Numbered from the stretch's first letter, positions 54,754-64,000 are shown. The stretch: 64,000 nt of DNA from Escherichia coli (GCF_024223415.1 NZ_CP100500.1), one strand, 5' to 3'. Notes: generated by a model from the sequence alone, not told the origin. A program made the numbers and translations.

Positions 54754-57146
54754 AGCATTGTCTCCAGCTCTTCCCTCAGCGCCTTACTGTCAGTAATGAG
54801 CTCAGGAACCCTTTCATTTAATGCCTGAAGTCGCCCGGTAAGTCGTTCCTGCGCCTGCTGATCGCGTTTATGATCTTCAGAGCTCTGAATCAGCGTGTTA
54901 CGCAGTTGTTCAACTTTCTCCCTGAATGCGCAGAAAAAGGCATCGATTTCCTGGCGGACGGGCTGGTTAATATCCTGCTCAATGGATGCCTGCAGCTCCC
55001 CGAAATATGCCCGGGTCAGTGACATAACTTCCTCTCTGACCTTGTTGATATTGATCACGCTGCGACTCACATCCTCGTCATAGTTTTCCCAGCCCAGGTC
55101 ACTGGTGCCAAACCATCGACAAACGGTTCCCCATACGCCACTCTGCCGACGGCGACGGGTGACGGTCTCCGTTCTTTCCTCCATAAGCGCACTCAGATTT
55201 ATTTTTACCGCGAGCCGGGTCTGTAACTGGCTGACTGCCGGAAAACTGATTTTTACGGTAAAGCCCTCATCCTCCAGGCGGGCATTGATGCGACCGGCAA
55301 TGTTTTCTGTGGCGTACAGGGCCGTGCCACGAAAACCTGTTTCAATCCCGCTGACGATTTTCTCCAGCTCAGGCCGGAACTGTGCTTCAGCCTCACGGTG
55401 CAGGCTGGTCACGGTCGATTCGATTTGCGTCATCAGTTCAAGGGCTTCCCTGCGATCACTGAATTTTATTTCGGGGCTGTCCGGGGCAAAATCTCGTTTC
55501 CTGTAATCCTCCCGGCCCTGGTTGTTGATACCGGACCATTGAGAAATTTTCCCCCATAATCCGGACTGAGACCTTCGTTGTTCTGCGTCTTCTTCCTCCA
55601 GCATTTGCTGTTCTTTGCGTTTACCGCTTCTGAAATAGTCATTCAGCTCCTCTTCCAGTGAGGTGCAGACCCCCGTCAGTAATTCCCGGGTTTTAGTATC
55701 GATCTCCTCCATGGCCATTCTGACATCAGTGGTCATCTGCTCCTGACAGTCCGCGATTTCCCGGATATCCGCAAGCAGGCTGGTGATATGCGACTGCAGT
55801 GACTGAATGCTTTGCTGTAGCCCCTGATGGCGTAACAACAGGTATTCACTGATATTTTCTGCATTCTGCATCAGTTTTGCGGCGGCAGAGTCAACCGCCA
55901 GTGCCGCAGCTCTGGAATGTGAGCTCTGTATGACTTCCGTTATCAGTTGATCGATAAGTGAGCCTTCCCACAGGTCTGTCGCCCCTTCAGTTGCCAGTTC
56001 ACTGTCTTTACAGACGTATTCTTTTTTCATGCAACCGAAGGCACCTCTGATAAAATCATCGACCCAGGCTTCATCAACAGGAAGGGTTCCGTTTTTCCGT
56101 AACTCATGAAGCGCACGGTTAGCCAGGTATGCCTGGCGTGAGGATCCGGGATAAACGCGGGAGGCGGGCAGCACATCGCTGTTCAGCATTGCCGGAACTT
56201 TCTGGCGTACGGCATCTGCCCCATCGCCATTGCGGTCTTTCTCATCAAATTTATTGACCAGTACAAACAGGCGGCCGGCTGATACGTCAGCAATGGCATT
56301 AAGCTCTTTACGGACGTCTTCATCCGCTTTTGAGTTCATCTGGGTGTAATCCATCACAGCCAGAACCGCAGAGGCTTTCTGCAGTTGATCCCGCATCATC
56401 ACTTCCATCTGCGGTTGTCCGGCCTCATTAGGGCCGGGGGTATCCAGCAGTGTGAGTGTTCCCTGGCATGCATCCATCCCCACCAGATGGCTGAATTCCA
56501 CGTCGATCACCGGCAGTTTCTGCACTTCTGCGTATTCATCAAAAGGAAATTCAGTCCCCATTGCCGCAGCAAGACGAACCAGATCGTTTAACGATGCCAG
56601 TCCGGTAAAGATTTCCTCCTCCCCGTGGTATTCATTTTTGAGCCAGCCATCATCCGTCAGAATATCCAGCAGTTCGCGGGTATCCCCGGTTTGCTGCAGG
56701 GTCTGTGCGACCTGCTGTCCTGCCGGGGTGGCGAGTTTTTCCTGCAGTGTGATTAATAAATTGCGGACAGGCTGAATATGTTCCAGATGGAGAACCGGCT
56801 CAGTTTTTCCGGGAACGTGGCGGATGAGCGTCGGTACAGAGGTCATGGGGCGGTTACGGTTAGGCAGAATTTCCTGCCCCACAATGGCGTTGATGGTGGT
56901 TGATTTGCCTGCTTTCATCGTGCCGACAACAGCCAGCACCATCTCCCTGCGGGCGGTTTTGATTTGTTCGCCCTCCAGCTCCTCAATTCTTTTCAGTGCT
57001 TTCTGTTTATCAAAAAGCAGTCTGTTTTCGTTCTTACTGTCAGATAACACATCTGGCTCCTCAACCATTTGCCGGAGCAGATTAATGTTCAGTTGCAAAA
57101 GTCGGTCGGCTTCATCACAAAGCAGGGCGATGTTCTTTTCGTGCAT
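54750..57146 (-). CDS. dynamin-like large GTPase
   Basis: 798-aa ORF with G1 P-loop (GTMKAGKST), switch-I Thr, G3 (LLDTPG) and G4 (LVNKFD) in the N-terminal third, then long helical/coiled-coil regions. Confidence 0.8.
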   Translation of the reverse strand: MHEKNIALLCDEADRLLQLNINLLRQMVEEPDVLSDSKNENRLLFDKQKALKRIEELEGEQIKTARREMVLAVVGTMKAGKSTTINAIVGQEILPNRNRPMTSVPTLIRHVPGKTEPVLHLEHIQPVRNLLITLQEKLATPAGQQVAQTLQQTGDTRELLDILTDDGWLKNEYHGEEEIFTGLASLNDLVRLAAAMGTEFPFDEYAEVQKLPVIDVEFSHLVGMDACQGTLTLLDTPGPNEAGQPQMEVMMRDQLQKASAVLAVMDYTQMNSKADEDVRKELNAIADVSAGRLFVLVNKFDEKDRNGDGADAVRQKVPAMLNSDVLPASRVYPGSSRQAYLANRALHELRKNGTLPVDEAWVDDFIRGAFGCMKKEYVCKDSELATEGATDLWEGSLIDQLITEVIQSSHSRAAALAVDSAAAKLMQNAENISEYLLLRHQGLQQSIQSLQSHITSLLADIREIADCQEQMTTDVRMAMEEIDTKTRELLTGVCTSLEEELNDYFRSGKRKEQQMLEEEDAEQRRSQSGLWGKISQWSGINNQGREDYRKRDFAPDSPEIKFSDRREALELMTQIESTVTSLHREAEAQFRPELEKIVSGIETGFRGTALYATENIAGRINARLEDEGFTVKISFPAVSQLQTRLAVKINLSALMEERTETVTRRRRQSGVWGTVCRWFGTSDLGWENYDEDVSRSVININKVREEVMSLTRAYFGELQASIEQDINQPVRQEIDAFFCAFREKVEQLRNTLIQSSEDHKRDQQAQERLTGRLQALNERVPELITDSKALREELETML

Positions 57147-57363
57147 TATTTAACCTTCCTAAGACGCATTTTCATGACAACCACGGAGGAGGTCATTTAC
57201 TACAAACGATCGTTTATAACGATCGATATGATAGTAACGATCGATACATTCTATTAACTTGAGAAACACAACGCAAGGGGACAACCCGGGTATGGCTGCG
57301 TTTGCATAGTGTTTTCATGGAGTTAAAAATCTGTAACAACAGCCTGGTACATCACCACCGGGT

Positions 57364-58280
57364 TCAGAAGAAAATCCAGTTCCATACCGCGCGGGCAACA
57401 GAGACCACCGAGTCACGGACGGCGCGCAGAACCGTGCGTGCAACAGAGGCAATGCAGACGCTCTCCGCCGTGTCAAATATCCGGTCCACCGCACCGGTAA
57501 ACTGTTCACGGGCCTGAGACCGGACAGACTCCGTGCGCAGCTCGTCCTGCAGGCGGGTCATCAGGGGACTGGCGGCATGGTCGGGAAGTGCTGTCATGAG
57601 CGCACTGACCAGCGTATCCAGTTCCCAGCCGGTGCGGGCCGATACGGCAACAACCCGATGTACGGGCCGGAACAGACGGAATACCGCCTCCGTTTTTTCG
57701 CGAATGTTCTGTGCCTGTGCGGGAGAAGGCTGAATACCGGCCATATCCCATTCATGGCAGGGCTCCGTTTTATCGGCCTGCATCACCACAAACAGTACCC
57801 GCTGATGTCCCCGGTGCAGGATGTGTCGCCAGAAATACTCATCCACAGACAGGGCACGGTCATCGGCTTTAATCAGCCACAGTACCAGGTCCAGTTCGAG
57901 CAGAATGTCACGGTACAGGGCTTCATACTCTGCATCCCTGTCCCGGCTCTCGCCCACCCCACCCCGGGCAGGTCAGTGATAACCATGCTGTGACCATGGC
58001 CATTCAGACGGAAGCGCTGCACTTCCCGGGGGCCGGCGTGAACATCACTGACCGGGGTGACCTCCCCCTGAAACAGCGCATTACAGAGTGAGGATTTACC
58101 GGCCCCGCTTTTACCCATAATGCCAGGCACGGGTTCGTGACTGGTGAGTTTGCGCAGATGTTCCAGGATGTGACGGGAAAGTGAGTAAGGCAGGGAGGAG
58201 AGCGGTTTTTCAATTGCCTCAATGGCATCAGACGGATTCATACATGTATTCCCGGTGAAAAAAGACAAAACCCCGCGCAC
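57364..58280 (-). pseudogene. YeeP/YfjP/YkfA-family small GTPase, frameshifted
   Basis: N-terminal part with P-loop (GKSGAGKSS) and DLPGVG in ORF 57873..58280; C-terminal part in overlapping ORF 57364..57957 in another frame; break coincides with a tandem ACCCC-ACCCC repeat. Confidence 0.7.
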
Positions 58281-58324
58281 CGGAAAGGTGGCGGGGGATT
58301 CACGGAAATAATATCTGTCTGAAA

Positions 58325-59488
58325 TTATCTGGAATCGATTTGGCTGTTCTGCCTGGTTGCCACCAAATCATGGTACGCCTGCTCAATCATTTCATTCAGC
58401 AGTTTTTTTGGGAGGACACCACGACTTCGGGCAATACTTTCAAGCTGTTTGTGGATTTTTCCGGACAGTTTCAGAGGGACGGAACCATCAGCACGTTCAT
58501 CACGCCTTTTTTGTTGCTCCCGGGCACTTTTCAGCTCATCAAGAAGAATCGCTTTATGCTGAATCCTGGGGGCCTGGAAGGAGACCTGCGTAAACTTCGC
58601 TCTGTTCCGTCTGGGATTACTTTCCAGTAAAAACTGTACCTGTTGCTCATTCCAGCCCTCCCAGTTATCAAACGTGGCGCAGGCAAACCAGTATTTCTGC
58701 TCCGGGGTAAGGGGATTCAGCGGGGTTCCCACACACCGGACCTGCATGGCGTTCCATAACCAGTCACACTGTTCACTGTCCCTGCTGTCCACCCACGAAA
58801 AGGGGGAGGGGTAATCATTGTTTATGCTGGCCCATTCAGAGAATACTGAGTTGATAATCGTCCTCGTAGCCTCTGGTCCGGATTTCAGCAGGTAACTGGA
58901 GCAGAACCATATAATTTCACGGTAGATTTTATCCGGATGCACGGTGCGCATCGGCTTTTCTCTGGGACCGGCAATCTTCGGTTGCGATGGAAACCCCGTG
59001 GCAAACCGCAGATGTTCCGGGGGCATTCCTGAACGTTTTTCAGGAATGGGTGTGAGTCCTGCGTTTCTGGTCTTTTCCGCTTGTCCGGTATTGCCTCCGG
59101 CCGGAGTGTTGTCGGGAGTATCTTCCGGAGGCGAGGTGTTTTCATTAGTTGGGGGAACAACAGCAGAACTGTCCATCTCCGGAATGGGTTGAGGGGCATA
59201 ATCACTGTGGTAGCCAGGGGAAAGCGTTAAGTCCCGAAGGGTGACATCAGGTTCCGGGCAGTGAGTGCCACCGGGAGTGAACGGGAGTTGTTGCTTTTGG
59301 GAGAAAAATGTATTGTGAATGCGGGTATACAGCTGGAACAGAAAAAAATAAGATGCCCGTGGTTCTTTTTTTAACCACTGTGTATATTCCTCTATGGCAC
59401 CGAGCTGTTGTTTGTGCCGTTTTACAGCATCGATATACGGACAGCTGGTGCAGATATCATCCAGTTCCTTTCCCACAATACACCTCAC
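58325..59488 (-). CDS. hypothetical island protein with Pro-rich linker
   Basis: 387-aa ORF: Cys-containing N-terminal region, a low-complexity Pro/Thr-rich segment, then a conserved-looking C-terminal domain; function and true start unknown. Confidence 0.45.
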   Translation of the reverse strand: MRCIVGKELDDICTSCPYIDAVKRHKQQLGAIEEYTQWLKKEPRASYFFLFQLYTRIHNTFFSQKQQLPFTPGGTHCPEPDVTLRDLTLSPGYHSDYAPQPIPEMDSSAVVPPTNENTSPPEDTPDNTPAGGNTGQAEKTRNAGLTPIPEKRSGMPPEHLRFATGFPSQPKIAGPREKPMRTVHPDKIYREIIWFCSSYLLKSGPEATRTIINSVFSEWASINNDYPSPFSWVDSRDSEQCDWLWNAMQVRCVGTPLNPLTPEQKYWFACATFDNWEGWNEQQVQFLLESNPRRNRAKFTQVSFQAPRIQHKAILLDELKSAREQQKRRDERADGSVPLKLSGKIHKQLESIARSRGVLPKKLLNEMIEQAYHDLVATRQNSQIDSR

Positions 59489-60952
59489 CTGCTTTTCTCA
59501 CATTTGCAGATTTTAAAAAAGCAAACAAAAACCTCCGTACATGATGTACAGAACAATCTACCAGGTAGTGGCGTCAGAAAACCCCCGGGCCGCCTGCACT
59601 TTCCAGAATGCGCCGGTTATGAAAAACCGGAAATTCAGTCTCTGTTGTAAGATGTACCCTCTGATACTACGTTTTCTCTGTGTATTTAACTCACTGTATT
59701 TATTGTCTTTTTAAGCTTGACTGATATTCTCCGGTCATAGTGTGCCGGATATACATCCCGTAAACTTCTCATTTTTATATAAAAATACCTGCACTCTCTT
59801 CAGCGCATCTGTCTCCTTTAAGTAAAAAATGTTTTCACGTATTGCTGTAAATTCATTTTAAATCAGTATATTACCTTGATATTGCTGTCTCCTGGTTTGA
59901 TGCGTAATCGTTCTGCCTTTCTGGATGATTCTGGTGCTTCCGGGTGCATTCTCCTCTGCACATGCAACAGTTCGTCATCGCCACGCTCCCAAAAAGCATA
60001 TAAAAACGAATCGAATTTGATATTTTTTTCAATCGTTTTTCATAGGAATTTCGTAGGGTATTCTCCGCTATAACCTCCATATTTGCTGCCTTTTTCTCCA
60101 TAAATCGTATGCAATATAGCCTGTCTGTCAAGACCTCTTCTCTGCTGTTGAGGAGACGATCTCATTTTTGGTCTTTTCCGGGAGAGAGGCTGTCAGATGA
60201 GCGAGCCGGATATACTGTCAGAGGTACACCCCGTAGCAGACCTGTGCTCCCATTTCCGCGATCCGGAACCAACAACACCCTACGGTTAATACCATTTGAA
60301 GCGTCAGGTACTGCAGGAAGTTCCCCCCTGCGCGGACATCGGTTCCTGCCGACATCTCACAATACGGCCAGACTGTCATGCAGTAACACCCGCATGCGGT
60401 CTGCGGTTTTAAGCGCACTCTCCCGTTTTCAGTGCACCGATAATGCGTCATAGTAAGTCTGGGGGAAGTTACGGAATGCCTGTTAAGTGGTGCCGTGGGT
60501 GGAGACAGCTTACTTTTCTACAGCAACTGCAGTCATTCAGGATGATCAGGAGATATTCTGTCAATGTCACGATCCTGCCATTTTCGTACCCGCTAAGATA
60601 CTTCCGTTACTGATGCTGTCCGCTTTTCACCATTTCATCCTCACTGACAGGCGTTGCGTTTTGGGTCATCACCACAGCTTTACGTTTCTCTTTTAACCGG
60701 TAACGCTCTCCTTTGATATTCAGCGTGGTTGAGTGATGCAGCAGTCAATCCAGGAGCGCTGTTGTCCGGCAACCACCATATCAACTTCTTCCCGGGTGTG
60801 GCGGAGAGGTGGTATCCTGGCTGAGTTTCGAAGCGAACCGTTCTTTTTGACGGGCGCATTTTACGTCCGGGCTGAATGTAGTAACGCGGCATGGAACGTC
60901 GGCCCGTATACCATTGCCTTAATCTCCGCAAAGATAACCTCGTCATTCCGGA

Positions 60953-60960
60953 CATTCTCT
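60953..60960. repeat. 8-bp target-site duplication (CATTCTCT), left copy
   Basis: Same octamer directly abuts both ends of the IS66-family element; coordinates approximate. Confidence 0.6.
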
Positions 60961-61043
60961 GTAAGCGTCGTCTGAGTACCGTCTGGTCCCGAATCCAGGA
61001 TCCTGTAACTTAAGCACCCACTTATTTTGCAGGTGGACACCTC

Positions 61044-61427
61044 ATGCGCGCTAAAGAAAGACTTCCCCGGAAACACTATTCCCCTGAATTCAAAATGGAA
61101 CTGGTCAGGCTGGCTCTTGAAGAAGAAGGCAGTATTGCCGCACTGGCCCGGAAACATGACGTCAATGATAACCTGCTCTTTAAATGGATAAGGCTCTGGC
61201 AGCGTGAAGGGCGGGTCTGTCGGCCCCGAAAAAACTCATCGTCGCTTCCTGCCCTGATACCCGTGCAGCTTCAGGCGGGCTCTTCTCTCCCAACCTTCGA
61301 ACTACCATCCTGCTCTCCTCCCGCTACCTGCCACATAAAATGTCGGGGAGGAGAAATAACACTGACTCATCCCTCTGCTGAACTCATGAGCACTGTCCTG
61401 CGCGAACTGATGCGGGGGCCTGTATGA
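61044..61427 (+). CDS. IS66-family accessory protein (orfA, HTH)
   Basis: 127-aa ORF with N-terminal transposase-type HTH (RKHYSPEFKMELVRLALEEEGSIAALARKHDVNDNLLFKWIR). Confidence 0.8.
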   Translation: MRAKERLPRKHYSPEFKMELVRLALEEEGSIAALARKHDVNDNLLFKWIRLWQREGRVCRPRKNSSSLPALIPVQLQAGSSLPTFELPSCSPPATCHIKCRGGEITLTHPSAELMSTVLRELMRGPV

Positions 61428-61771
61428 TAAATCTTCCCGCAGGCACAAAAATCTGGCTGGTTGCCGGTATCACCGATATGCGCAACGGCTTCAATGGCCT
61501 CGCCGCAAAGGTGCAGACCGCGCTGAAAGATGACCCGATGTCCGGCCACGTCTTCATCTTCCGGGGACGCAGCGGCAGTCAGGTAAAACTGCTCTGGTCC
61601 ACCGGCGATGGTCTGTGCCTGCTGACAAAGCGACTAGAACGTGGTCGCTTCGCCTGGCCCTCAGCCCGCGATGGCAAAGTGTTCCTGACGCTGGCGCAAC
61701 TGGCGATGCTGATGGAAGGTATCGACTGGCGACAGCCAAAGCGGTTACTGACATCCCTGACCATGTTGTAG
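61424..61771 (+). CDS. IS66-family TnpB (orfB)
   Basis: 115-aa ORF with the conserved TnpB signature (LPAGTKIWLVAGITDMRNGFNGL); 4-nt overlap with orfA. Confidence 0.85.
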   Translation: MINLPAGTKIWLVAGITDMRNGFNGLAAKVQTALKDDPMSGHVFIFRGRSGSQVKLLWSTGDGLCLLTKRLERGRFAWPSARDGKVFLTLAQLAMLMEGIDWRQPKRLLTSLTML

Positions 61772-61820
61772 CGCTCTTTATCCTGGTTGTCGCAGAATAA
61801 GCCTGGTAAAATACAGGCTT

Positions 61821-63356
61821 ATGAACGACACCTCTTCTGACGACATCCTTCTGCTGAAACAGCGCCTGGCCGAACAGGAAGCGTTGATCCACGCCCTGCA
61901 GGAAAAGCTGAGCAACCGGGAACGCGAAATAGACCATCTGCAGGCGCAACTGGATAAGCTGCGCCGGATGAACTTCGGCAGTCGTTCCGAAAAGGTATCC
62001 CGCCGTATCGCGCAAATGGAAGCTGACCTGAACCTGCTGCAGCAGGAAAGCGATACGCTGACCGGCCGGGTGGATGACCCGGCAGTGCAGCGCCCGCTGC
62101 GTCAGACCCGCACCCGCAAACCGTTCCCTGAGTCACTCCCACGGGATGAGAAGCGGCTGCTGCCGACTGAGCCGTGTTGCCCGGAGTGCGGTGGTTCGCT
62201 GAGTTACCTGGGTGAGGATGCCGCCGAACAGCTGGAGCTGATGCGCAGCGCCTTCCGGGTTATCCGGACAGTCCGTGAAAAGCATGCCTGCCGTCGGTGC
62301 GATCGCATCGTTCAGGCCCCGGCTCCTTCGCGCCCCATCGAACGGGGGATCGCCGGACCGGGGCTGCTGGCCCGAGTGCTGACCTCAAAGTATGCAGAGC
62401 ACATACCGCTGTATCGCCAGTCGGAGATCTATGCCCGCCAGGGTGTAGTGTTGAGTCGTTCTGTACTGTCGGGCTGGGTGGATGCGTGTTGTCGTCTGCT
62501 GGCACCGCTGGATGAAGCCCTTCAGCACTATGTCCTGACCGACGGCAAACTCCATGCTGACGATATGCCTGTCCCGGTGCTGTTGCCGGGCAATAAGAAG
62601 ACGAAGACCGGGCGCTTATGGACGTACGTTCGAGACGACCGCAACGCCGGATCAGCGCTGGCCCCCGCAGTGTGGTTCGCTTACAGCCCGGACAGAAAAG
62701 GTATCCACCCTCAGACCCATCTTGCAGGCTTCAGTGGCGTACTGCAGGCTGATGCCTACGCCGGGTTCAACGAGCTCTACCGCGACGGCCATATAAAGGA
62801 AGCCGCGTGCTGGGCCCATGCCCGCCGAAAAATCCACGATGTTCACGTCCGTACCCCGTCAGCCCTGACGGAGGAGGCGCTGAAACGGATCGGCGAGCTG
62901 TATGCCATCGAGTCGGAGCTCAGAGGTAAAAGAGCAGAGGAACGGCAGGCAGTCCGGCACCAAAAAGTGCTGCCGCTGCTGGCGTCACTGGAGGGGTGGC
63001 TGCGGGAGAAACAGAAAACCCTCTCAAGGCACTCAGAACTGGCGAAGGCGTTCGGGTATGCGCTGAACCAGTGGCCGGCGCTGACCCGCTATGCAGAAGA
63101 TGGCTGGGTGGAGGTGGATAATAACATTGCCGAAAACGCCCTACGACTGGTCAGTCTGGGGAGAAAAAACTGGCTGTTCTTCGGCTCGGATCATGGTGGT
63201 GAGCGCGGTGCGTCACTGTACAGTCTTATCGGGACGTGCAAATTAAACGGCGTGGATCCGGAACGCTATCTGCATCATGTACTTGATGTCATCGCCGACT
63301 GGCCTGTGAACCGGGTGGGTGCTCTGCTCCCGTGGCGGGTTACTCTGCCTGCCTGA
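61821..63356 (+). CDS. IS66-family transposase (orfC)
   Basis: 511-aa ORF with N-terminal leucine-zipper-like region, zinc-finger Cys pairs (CPECGG…CRRCDRI) and the IS66 DDE-type core. Confidence 0.9.
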   Translation: MNDTSSDDILLLKQRLAEQEALIHALQEKLSNREREIDHLQAQLDKLRRMNFGSRSEKVSRRIAQMEADLNLLQQESDTLTGRVDDPAVQRPLRQTRTRKPFPESLPRDEKRLLPTEPCCPECGGSLSYLGEDAAEQLELMRSAFRVIRTVREKHACRRCDRIVQAPAPSRPIERGIAGPGLLARVLTSKYAEHIPLYRQSEIYARQGVVLSRSVLSGWVDACCRLLAPLDEALQHYVLTDGKLHADDMPVPVLLPGNKKTKTGRLWTYVRDDRNAGSALAPAVWFAYSPDRKGIHPQTHLAGFSGVLQADAYAGFNELYRDGHIKEAACWAHARRKIHDVHVRTPSALTEEALKRIGELYAIESELRGKRAEERQAVRHQKVLPLLASLEGWLREKQKTLSRHSELAKAFGYALNQWPALTRYAEDGWVEVDNNIAENALRLVSLGRKNWLFFGSDHGGERGASLYSLIGTCKLNGVDPERYLHHVLDVIADWPVNRVGALLPWRVTLPA

Positions 63357-63397
63357 CCAGCTTCACTTCGTCAATACGGTTCTCACTGCACGCTTAC

Positions 63398-63405
63398 CAT
63401 TCTCT
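63398..63405. repeat. 8-bp target-site duplication (CATTCTCT), right copy
   Basis: Identical to the octamer at 60953..60960; coordinates approximate. Confidence 0.6.
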
Positions 63406-64000
63406 GCCAGGCATATGTCGATGTAATCCATAAACGATTTCAGCTTACCCCTTTTGTGGCCAGTCTTTCTGGCTGGCGGTTCAGGGGATGTTTTCTGGTT
63501 ATCGTGTACCACAAAGCAGGGATATTGCCCCGATAGTCACATTTCAGATTGATCGCGGTCTGAAGATGTGGCACTGAGGTAACGTGCTGGTGTCACTGGT
63601 ATTGCTGAAGTTATGGTTTTTCGGGGTCAGGTGAGCCTGTTGTGTGTATGCTTTTTGTTCAGGTCAGAGGGGGACTGTGTGGACAGCGGCTTTTGTCTCC
63701 GGGCATTCACGCCTGAACGATGAATGCGATTTTCAGCAATATTTGTCTTTGTGACACTCTCTGGTTGAGAAGCTAATGCGCGCCCCTGTTTCCACAGAGA
63801 ATGAGGCTTGCCATCAGCCGAAACATCAGTATTCCACGCCATACAGACGGCGCCTGACCATGTGCTGATGCAGGTAAAATGTTTCACTACAACTGTTCGG
63901 GTTGCTATGCAACGAAACAGCGATTCTCACGATCTTTAACTGCAACGTTTTTCCGCCTGAAAGTAAGCGTACAGCGAGGGCCGTATTGACGGGGATGTGT

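Follow-up and report, generated by a model that had tools for sequence, protein, structure and literature searches.

Between the gene array of a genomic island and an IS66 insertion, an Escherichia coli chromosome (GCF_024223415.1 NZ_CP100500.1) contains about 1.5 kb in which no convincing gene is apparent, at positions 59489–60960 of the 64,000-nucleotide stretch analysed here (the window). What is this DNA, and could it serve the island? A reading made from the sequence alone (the sequence-only reading) had offered an integrase or attachment region or a regulatory region, and had taken the stretch for the DNA into which IS66 inserted. With rather better than even confidence, we regard it as a composite of two non-coding pieces, both of ordinary kinds: on the right a relic of an IS21-family element, and on the left the upstream region of an orphan gene (region A). 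The anatomy, conservation and homologies of the two pieces are set out below, together with a proposal for what region A may do. Table 1 collects the coordinates.

Table 1. Features of the gene-free stretch and its surroundings, in positions of the window
Feature	Position	Strand	Basis or remark
Orphan gene, 383/387 aa	58325–59476 (GTG at 59488 for 387 aa)	−	ORF; PGAP hypothetical protein WP_000514100
Region A, ~1.06 kb of island backbone upstream of the 387-aa orphan gene	59477–60548	−	unannotated in >2,000 E. coli genomes
Terminator-like hairpin T2 (stem 59553–59533), tail GGUUUUUGUUUGCUUUUUU	59513–59553	−	terminator scan
CCGG hairpin	59749–59730	−	alignment A1
Terminator-like hairpin T1 (stem 59807–59790) and U-run	59777–59816	−	terminator scan
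Small ORF, 69 aa, ATG at 60080	59871–60080	−	intact in 5/8 alleles
Branched hairpin H2	59924–59979	−	−14 to −18 kcal/mol, all alleles
Hairpin T0, 13 bp (60040–60002), then U-runs	59991–60040	−	possible weak terminator
Conserved core, motif CCTACGAAATTCCTATG at 60057–60041	60003–60084	−	nhmmer, Smith-Waterman
σ70 promoter-like site, TTGACA-16 nt-TACGAT	60131–60104	−	10/12 consensus positions
IS21-family relic	60549–60960	−	blastn, IstB/IstA identity, PGAP pseudogenes
Right terminal repeat of the IS21 relic	60549–60563	−	TGTCAATGTCACGAT vs IS21 TGTCAACGCCACGAT, 13/15 positions; starts TGTCAA
IstB C-terminus (last 45 codons)	60607–60744	−	84% aa identity to IS21 IstB residues 221–265
PGAP pseudogene, 'AAA family ATPase'	60607–60744
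PGAP pseudogene, 'IS21 family transposase'	60759–60965
IstA fragment	60761–60960	−	78% aa identity, IstA residues 85–125
IS66-family element (tnpA, tnpB, tnpC)	60961–63397	+	ends GTAAGCG...CGCTTAC; ORFs agree with PGAP names
IS21 IstA relic, continued beyond IS66	63398–63489	−	91% identity to IS21; follows on from the IS21 coordinate reached at 60961

A gene-free stretch in the interior of a CP4-44-type island

The window is 99.9% identical to E. coli chromosomes, and many complete chromosomes of the species carry the 1,472 bp of the gene-free stretch at that same identity. The stretch belongs to a genomic island of the CP4-44 type, which occupies the site between tmaR (yeeX) and cobU. Along the minus strand, the order is alpA, a 200-aa orphan gene, the IS21 relic with IS66, the gene-free stretch, the 387-aa gene and a YeeP/YkfA-type GTPase gene, after which come dynamin-like, RdcB-like and patatin-like genes. 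Both alpA (68 aa, PF05930) and the 200-aa orphan gene lie just past the window end. The stretch is island interior, between an alpA/200-aa module and an orphan-gene/GTPase module. The GTG at 59488 bounds it on the left. On the right the limit is precise, at 60961, where the inverted repeat of IS66 (GTAAGCG) begins.

The claim that no intact gene lies here agrees with the NCBI annotation of more than 2,000 E. coli carriers, which shows just two pseudogene fragments; PGAP places no feature in 59489–60606. The overlapping ORFs are short, as had been noted (the longest are 114, 91, 86 and 80 aa), and none scores above the Pfam cut-off. The database check proposed for a known gene that had been missed found none in PGAP, Pfam or NCBIfam. 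Six-frame read-through translations of 59489–60620 gave nothing credible against Pfam and NCBIfam. The one Pfam exception in 59489–60960 is a 45-aa IstB tail (PF01695, E 5e-4), whose match is the end of the profile (216–238 of 238). A hidden or decayed protein gene was likewise rejected: IstB was all that came back when six frames were compared with Pfam and NCBIfam, and when the ORFs were compared with Pfam and with PHROGs. The AT-rich part is real, with a GC content of ~0.40 over 59550–60150 versus ~0.52 on the flanks.

IS elements often accumulate at island ends, and the closeness of the stretch to IS elements is the one point in favour of its being the integrase or attachment end of the island. 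Several observations contradict this. At E ≤ 1, six-frame read-through translations match no recombinase family of Pfam or NCBIfam; repeats that could mark an att site, whether direct, inverted or tandem, do not exceed chance level; and no tRNA or tmRNA model of Rfam matches. Furthermore, island genes lie on both sides, with alpA, the 200-aa gene and Gp2-like genes beyond IS66. We regard an integrase or attachment end as extremely improbable. A 17-nt repeat (59516/59991) was also considered as the trace of an ancient tandem or long target duplication and rejected, the local alignment being at chance level. The sole match to Rfam 15 at E ≤ 1 is an archaeal snoRNA model (E 0.94), outside the region.

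IS66 inserted into the debris of an IS21-family element

The right-hand 412 bp of the stretch align with a plasmid copy of IS21 at 90% over 60576–60764 (right end and istB 3′ end) and at 86% over 60761–60961 (istA). The relic resembles IS21-family elements (IS21, IS100) in having a TGTCAA end, the IstB C-terminus, an IstA segment and the istA-istB gene order. It differs from them in an internal deletion of ~1.4 kb, which joins IstA near residue 133 to IstB residue 221, in the lack of a left end, which is missing past 63489, and in the interruption by IS66. It is not an intact mobile IS21, as istA and istB are incomplete and one of the two ends is absent.

IS66 is flanked by an 8-bp target duplication, CATTCTCT, at 60953–60960 and 63398–63405. 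Homology to IS21 breaks off at 60961 and picks up again at 63398, and CATTCTCT stands at either edge of the gap, indicating that IS66 inserted into IS21 debris. The sequence-only reading had IS66 inserting into the stretch as island or regulatory DNA; this fails for the island DNA, and what stands is the insertion into the right-hand 412 bp, which are the older IS21 relic.

The relic, with the same right end, is found in alleles L004–L007, L009 and L012 of the adjoining region (divergence down to 79% identity) and is absent from the most divergent allele, L016. Its presence down to the 79% alleles and absence from L016 indicate that it is old, yet younger than the abutting region A. We consider 60549–60960 to be inert debris; at most, the outward-facing TTGACA at the tip of the relic might supply a promoter hexamer. 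The IS21 and IS66 parts are already known element kinds.

Region A is a widespread non-coding segment

Of 5,426 E. coli genomes, 2,092 carry the whole of region A, and they fall into four identity bands (99, 97, 94.5 and 87%). Carriers include O104:H4 2009EL-2050 (NC_018650 1977102–1978219) and E. coli 536 (NC_008253 2099397–2100509). Further alleles, reached via homologues of the orphan protein, are 83% (L009), 79% (L012) and ~60–70% (L016) identical. In all eight alleles, spanning 99–70% identity, region A lies upstream of the orphan gene on the same strand, and it survives in L006, where the orphan gene is mostly deleted. This tidies the annotation of ~40% of complete E. coli genomes (2,092/5,426): their unannotated kilobase can be described as the remains of an IS21 element plus non-coding DNA upstream of an orphan gene of the island.

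The alleles differ by indels of 1, 2, 6, 8, 9, 19 and 43 bp. As these include lengths that are not multiples of 3 and break any frame, region A is non-coding. It has no matches in Pfam, NCBIfam or Rfam, and none in a phage collection. On plasmids it occurs in only 3 records, each of which carries the whole island segment. A phage or plasmid origin was rejected on these two grounds.

Region A is absent from K-12 and also from the reference genomes of other species. A K-12 counterpart with known annotation was sought and discarded, the only match being the yeeP pseudogene; K-12 keeps only the 3′ part of yeeP from this segment, and maps of its transcription starts do not apply to region A. The lack of a K-12 counterpart is probably why region A has never been studied. 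In the literature, no paper was found that contains 16–18-mers from region A, and a term search for the locus in an in-silico sRNA survey covering strains of pathogenic E. coli and of Streptococcus agalactiae (PMC3326304) gave nothing.

Conservation is uneven. Region A is 83, 79 and 70% identical where the four-fold degenerate sites of the adjacent gene are 87, 87 and 78% identical; as divergence is no lower than at four-fold sites, most of region A drifts approximately neutrally, and constraint is limited to blocks. In L016, blastn similarity begins at 60148, and the half of region A above that position is ~60% identical. The strongly conserved half starts just upstream of the −35 hexamer described below. 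Divergence similar to or above that of neighbouring four-fold sites, together with the many indels, is what would be seen if region A were a functionless spacer in hitch-hiking decay and owed its hairpins and promoter match to chance. The features within the conserved half bear on this reading.

A conserved promoter-like site and terminator-type hairpins

The conserved half opens with a σ70 promoter-like site, from which transcription would start near 60097. Its −35 and −10 hexamers are identical in 8 of 8 alleles, including the 70% allele L016. Promoter-like sites as such are not enriched in the region (2 found versus 2.9 expected in shuffles), which again suits a spacer, and no promoter is recognisable at the equivalent place in the distant relatives. 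A proximal TAAAAT at 59515–59510 is weak, has no good −35 and is not conserved in L016. GATC sites are not enriched either (4 in 1,087 bp versus ~4 expected), so region A gives no sign of phase variation of the Dam/OxyR type.

Structures were predicted by RNAalifold and RNAfold from an alignment of the eight alleles (A1). Five hairpins (T0, H2, T1, a CCGG hairpin and T2) fold in every allele. T0 is predicted in 8 of 8 alleles at −7 to −13 kcal/mol; its stem is kept, with one-sided U-G/U-A changes, and its loop varies. It is A-U rich, has a 12-nt loop, was not flagged by the terminator scan and fits the definition of an intrinsic terminator loosely. The minimum-free-energy z-scores of its segment are unremarkable (−0.2 to −0.5), a further point for the spacer. 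H2 carries one compensatory change, from C-G to U-A, in L016. The stem of T1 is kept in 8 of 8 alleles with a variable loop and shows a G-U to A-U change in L016. T2, found in 8 of 8 alleles at −8 to −10 kcal/mol, ends ~40 nt before the GTG start at 59476; two of its pairs change on both sides in L016, and in L009 and L012 changes are one-sided with pairing kept.

T1 and T2 each have the combination of a G+C-containing hairpin and a directly adjoining U-run that defines a predicted intrinsic terminator at the sequence level. The terminator scan returned 4 sites versus 1.4 ± 1.1 expected, and flagged T1 and T2 independently. In pairing statistics that are partly circular, the hairpins having been picked from the fold of the same alignment, 77% of stem columns are invariant versus 43% of unpaired columns (Fisher p 6e-11) and 53% of the hairpins' own loops (p 0.009). 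Within the stems, pairing is kept in 98% of cells. At three pairs both sides have changed in compensation, all three in the single allele L016; 1 of 500 shuffles gave as many. Stems more conserved than loops, compensatory changes in T2 and H2, and invariant hexamers all argue against chance features in a spacer.

A near-consensus promoter followed by conserved hairpin-plus-U-run ends could also mean that region A encodes stand-alone trans-acting sRNAs, running from the promoter at 60131–60104 to T0 (~100 nt) or T1 (~315 nt). The first 100 nt are the best conserved, and the K-12 sister island has IsrC between yeeP and flu, so such islands can host sRNAs. However, no Rfam family matches, a BLAST search of the K-12 island, with isrC included, gives no match, and no paper with the sequence was found. 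In addition, the conserved core of Citrobacter, described below, lies ~100–180 nt upstream of the gene start and has no clear terminator, an arrangement that a leader or operator fits better than an sRNA does. We consider stand-alone sRNAs unlikely, with an appreciable chance of being right.

The small ORF and the orphan gene

The conserved half also contains an ORF of 69 codons. As a functional unit, this ORF or a leader peptide of 33–35 aa would have several points in its favour: an AAGG lies 9 nt upstream, the promoter-like site precedes it, T1 follows its stop, and some GenBank records name it 'hypothetical protein' (289 cluster members, all E. coli). The pattern of variation suggests otherwise. 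A +2 indel or divergence cuts the frame to 33–35 aa in L005, L012 and L016 (3 of 8 alleles). Over the 90 nt of the C-terminal half, 7 alleles show no synonymous differences, a sign of constraint at the nucleotide level or of recombination, not of constraint on a protein. The N-terminal 28 codons, compared in A1 between the window and L016, show ~5 synonymous and 7 non-synonymous changes, without synonymous bias. Furthermore, the Citrobacter homologue has no ATG there, no family matches, and RefSeq PGAP never annotates the ORF. From these comparisons we judge it not to be a conserved gene, and give a functional small protein or leader peptide a slight chance.

The gene downstream of region A is itself an orphan. 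Its start common to the other alleles and PGAP is the GTG at 59476. The protein family is limited to E. coli, with relatives of 30% identity in Citrobacter koseri, Cronobacter sakazakii and three metagenome contigs. When GTDB species representatives were scanned for peptide patterns of the 387-aa protein, no relative turned up. The AF2 model is poor (pLDDT 59), and the protein has no PDB fold match, no family match and no PADLOC match. Divergence is near-equal at all three codon positions, and the whole orphan-gene module may be under weak constraint.

An 80-bp core shared with Citrobacter and Cronobacter islands

In 5 of 5 distant relatives, alpA is divergent from a gene of 364–372 aa across ~500 bp, with the GTPase gene next. 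A profile built from these five alpA/370-aa intergenic regions matches E. coli islands twice, in 90 bp beside alpA and at 60084–60003 of the window. The nhmmer E-value of the latter is 1e-3, and that of L016 is 5e-5. Consistent with this, Smith-Waterman comparison of the core with the Citrobacter locus L013 scores 22, versus 11.7 ± 1.4 for shuffles. The core is the most conserved 60 nt of A1. Matches at two separate places indicate that the divergent control region of an ancestor has come apart in E. coli: one part stays beside alpA, which is co-directional here and lies at least 1.6 kb away. Inversion mediated by IS21 was considered for the re-orientation of alpA and rejected, as L016 has region A and the co-directional arrangement yet lacks the IS21 relic.

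The shared block contains CCTACGAA(A/T)TT(C/T/A)CTA(T/C)G. In the relatives it is the first of two 14-bp direct repeats (WYGAATTTACTAYG) ~22–24 bp apart, an arrangement that suits a DNA-binding protein. A search of other species for the DNA motif returned 67 matches. None of these has alpA, the 370-aa gene or a GTPase gene as a neighbour, and the two inspected matches from enterobacteria lie within coding sequence (lepA and a sensor kinase).

In these relatives the core occupies a syntenic position upstream of the homologue of the orphan gene, and the remaining intergenic DNA there cannot be aligned to region A. That 80 bp are kept at this position, where the protein is only 30% identical, argues further against a functionless spacer. 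Weighed against the neutral-like divergence, this evidence leaves the spacer, in our estimate, unlikely, with a smallish share of the probability.

Two direct repeats in AT-rich DNA, as in the relatives' core, could instead mark a DNA-level origin (oriT or oriV with iterons) of an excised island circle, and the island encodes an inovirus Gp2-like (YagK/YfjJ) protein. However, the repeats number only two, with a degenerate second copy in E. coli, and the motif CCTACGAAATTCCTATG is single-copy in the window. In addition, neither a relaxase nor a known Rep protein is encoded next to it. The orphan protein has no fold or family match. An origin thus seems very improbable to us. The 80-bp core probably acts as an operator to which a protein binds or as an element of a leader RNA, and it offers a concrete candidate operator for the AlpA-type protein of the island.

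A proposed leader upstream of the orphan and GTPase genes

Most likely, 59477–60548 is a cis-regulatory promoter and leader, possibly giving short non-coding transcripts. The proposal of an island regulatory region thus survives in part: it stands as an inference from the conserved promoter-like site, the terminator-type hairpins and the 80-bp core, and it applies to the left 1.06 kb only.

Transcription and termination at region A, and any regulator acting there, we infer from sequence as follows. RNA polymerase would start near 60097 on the minus strand, from the conserved TTGACA-16-TACGAT site, and would transcribe the 80-nt core, whose conservation predates the separation of the E. coli and Citrobacter lineages of the island. 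The polymerase would then meet three hairpin-plus-U-run signals, T0 at ~60000, T1 at ~59790 and T2 at ~59535, and most transcripts would end as short non-coding RNAs of ~100, 315 or 580 nt. The orphan gene and the GTPase gene would be expressed just by read-through or from the weak proximal promoter (TAAAAT). If the promoter and terminators are real, they provide a handle on the control of the conserved GTPase-containing core in widespread CP4-44-type islands.

A bolder version, to which we give a small chance, is that the multi-terminator leader silences the core operon of CP4-44-type islands, and that an island factor binding the 80-nt core licenses read-through. The core operon would comprise the 387-aa orphan gene and the YeeP-type GTPase gene, followed by Ag43 or dynamin/patatin cargo. 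Candidates for the read-through factor are the PF05930 AlpA, the adjacent 200-aa orphan and the 387-aa protein, which possibly has an RHH-like C-terminus. Such silencing, if true, would amount to a switch for island gene expression, by antitermination or attenuation, of a kind not described before.

Comparison with known regulatory systems

One counterpart of region A is the alpA/370-aa control region of Citrobacter koseri, Cronobacter sakazakii and the three metagenome contigs, which has the 80-bp core upstream of the homologous gene on the same strand. In contrast to E. coli, that control region is ~500 bp in total and alpA is divergent there. Specific to E. coli, compared with the relatives, are ~400 nt between the core and the gene, which contain H2, T1 and other hairpins.

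The IsrC/agn43 locus of the K-12 island CP4-44 belongs to the same island family and the same site (cobU-tmaR), is non-coding and lies beside a YeeP-type GTPase gene. It differs in position, region A being on the other side of the GTPase gene, and in sequence, as BLAST of window positions 57000–64000 against K-12 CP4-44 matches yeeP only.

In architecture, region A is reminiscent of leaders whose intrinsic terminators gate an operon, such as the lambda PR′-tR′ unit and the targets of Pseudomonas aeruginosa AlpA, with a strong promoter, in region A a putative one, and 1–3 hairpin-plus-U-run signals upstream of the first ORF. In P. aeruginosa, the terminators of PalpB-tB and PPA0807 are at +26 and +247 (PMC7969949). 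In the E. coli island, T0, T1 and T2 all lie between 60097 and 59476, so that the predicted terminators would stand between the putative promoter and the first ORF. Unlike in antitermination systems of the Q or P. aeruginosa AlpA type, no antiterminator of the 21Q/AlpA fold is encoded nearby, and no ops, nut or Q-binding-type element was recognised in region A; specifically, the leader, read by eye, has no GGCGGTAG of the RfaH ops element.

The shared name AlpA does not extend the likeness. P. aeruginosa AlpA is large, has a 21Q-like fold and carries functional residues at 128–142. The island AlpA has 68 aa, belongs to PF05930, weakly resembles excisionase/TorI-type proteins and is labelled 'excisionase and transcriptional regulator' in PHROG. 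The island protein as a processive antiterminator was rejected, since it is unrelated to the large 21Q-like protein and has only the name in common with it. We draw the P. aeruginosa analogy for architecture only. By its sequence features, region A is most likely an uncharacterised member of a familiar kind, an island promoter and leader with terminator-type hairpins.

Conserved island core and variable cargo

The conserved core of the island consists of alpA, the 200-aa gene, region A (the non-coding DNA upstream of the 387-aa orphan gene), the orphan gene and the GTPase gene, which together form one block. Downstream of the GTPase gene, the cargo varies among island alleles (L009-L011, L016 and L017 compared with the window): some of those alleles have an Ag43-type autotransporter gene and, after it, one of the dynamin family, whereas the window has dynamin, RdcB-like and patatin genes directly after the GTPase gene. 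At locus L004, the orphan gene is flanked by iron-uptake genes.

In the window, 5 bp (CCCAC) are duplicated at 57953-57957 of the GTPase gene relative to NZ_CP030331. Because of this duplication the gene is present as two ORFs (57364-57957 and 57873-58280), and, being thus split, it is probably a pseudogene in the window strain. The tnpC gene of the IS66 element is intact, whereas in NZ_CP030331 and NZ_CP173539, whose copies are otherwise 99.9% identical, it is annotated as frameshifted.

Coordinates of the GTPase and tnpC genes in the window
Feature	Position	Strand	Remark
YeeP/YkfA-type GTPase gene	about 57369-58246	minus	
IS66 tnpC ORF	61821-63356		intact, 511 aa

The orphan protein family and its start codon

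The frame of the 387-aa orphan family is open across alleles (58325-59476 in the window, and loci L009, L012 and L016), with identities almost equal at codon positions 1, 2 and 3 (e.g. 0.865/0.894/0.839), so dN/dS is near 1. The family has no match in Pfam, NCBIfam, PHROG or PADLOC, and no fold match in PDB. The C-terminal 45 residues of the protein look ribbon-helix-helix-like, as judged by eye.

In other alleles, the gene starts at an ATG (390 aa) followed by TGG, whereas in the window this ATG is directly followed by TGA (59498-59503). The start in the window must be GTG at 59488 or GTG at 59476; in the most divergent allele, the codon aligned with the GTG at 59476 is ATG.

Candidate promoter and upstream hairpin

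The IS21 relic has, at its outer end adjoining region A (60542-60570), a TTGACA that points into region A (60554-60549), and a scan flagged GTGACA-17-GATCAT at this place. Since IS21 ends are known to provide the −35 hexamer of hybrid promoters, transcription entering region A could originate in the relic.

In distant relatives of the island from Citrobacter, Cronobacter and metagenomes (L013, L018-L021), the start of the 370-aa gene is preceded, at a distance of about 40-75 nt, by a hairpin with apparent covariation (GTTGGTG...CACCAAC in L013, the Citrobacter island, versus TTGATGGT...ACCATCAA in L020), and is followed by a conserved ATGAAAAT-TAAT-ATT block. The position of this hairpin roughly corresponds to that of T2, the terminator-like hairpin upstream of the orphan gene in E. 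coli.
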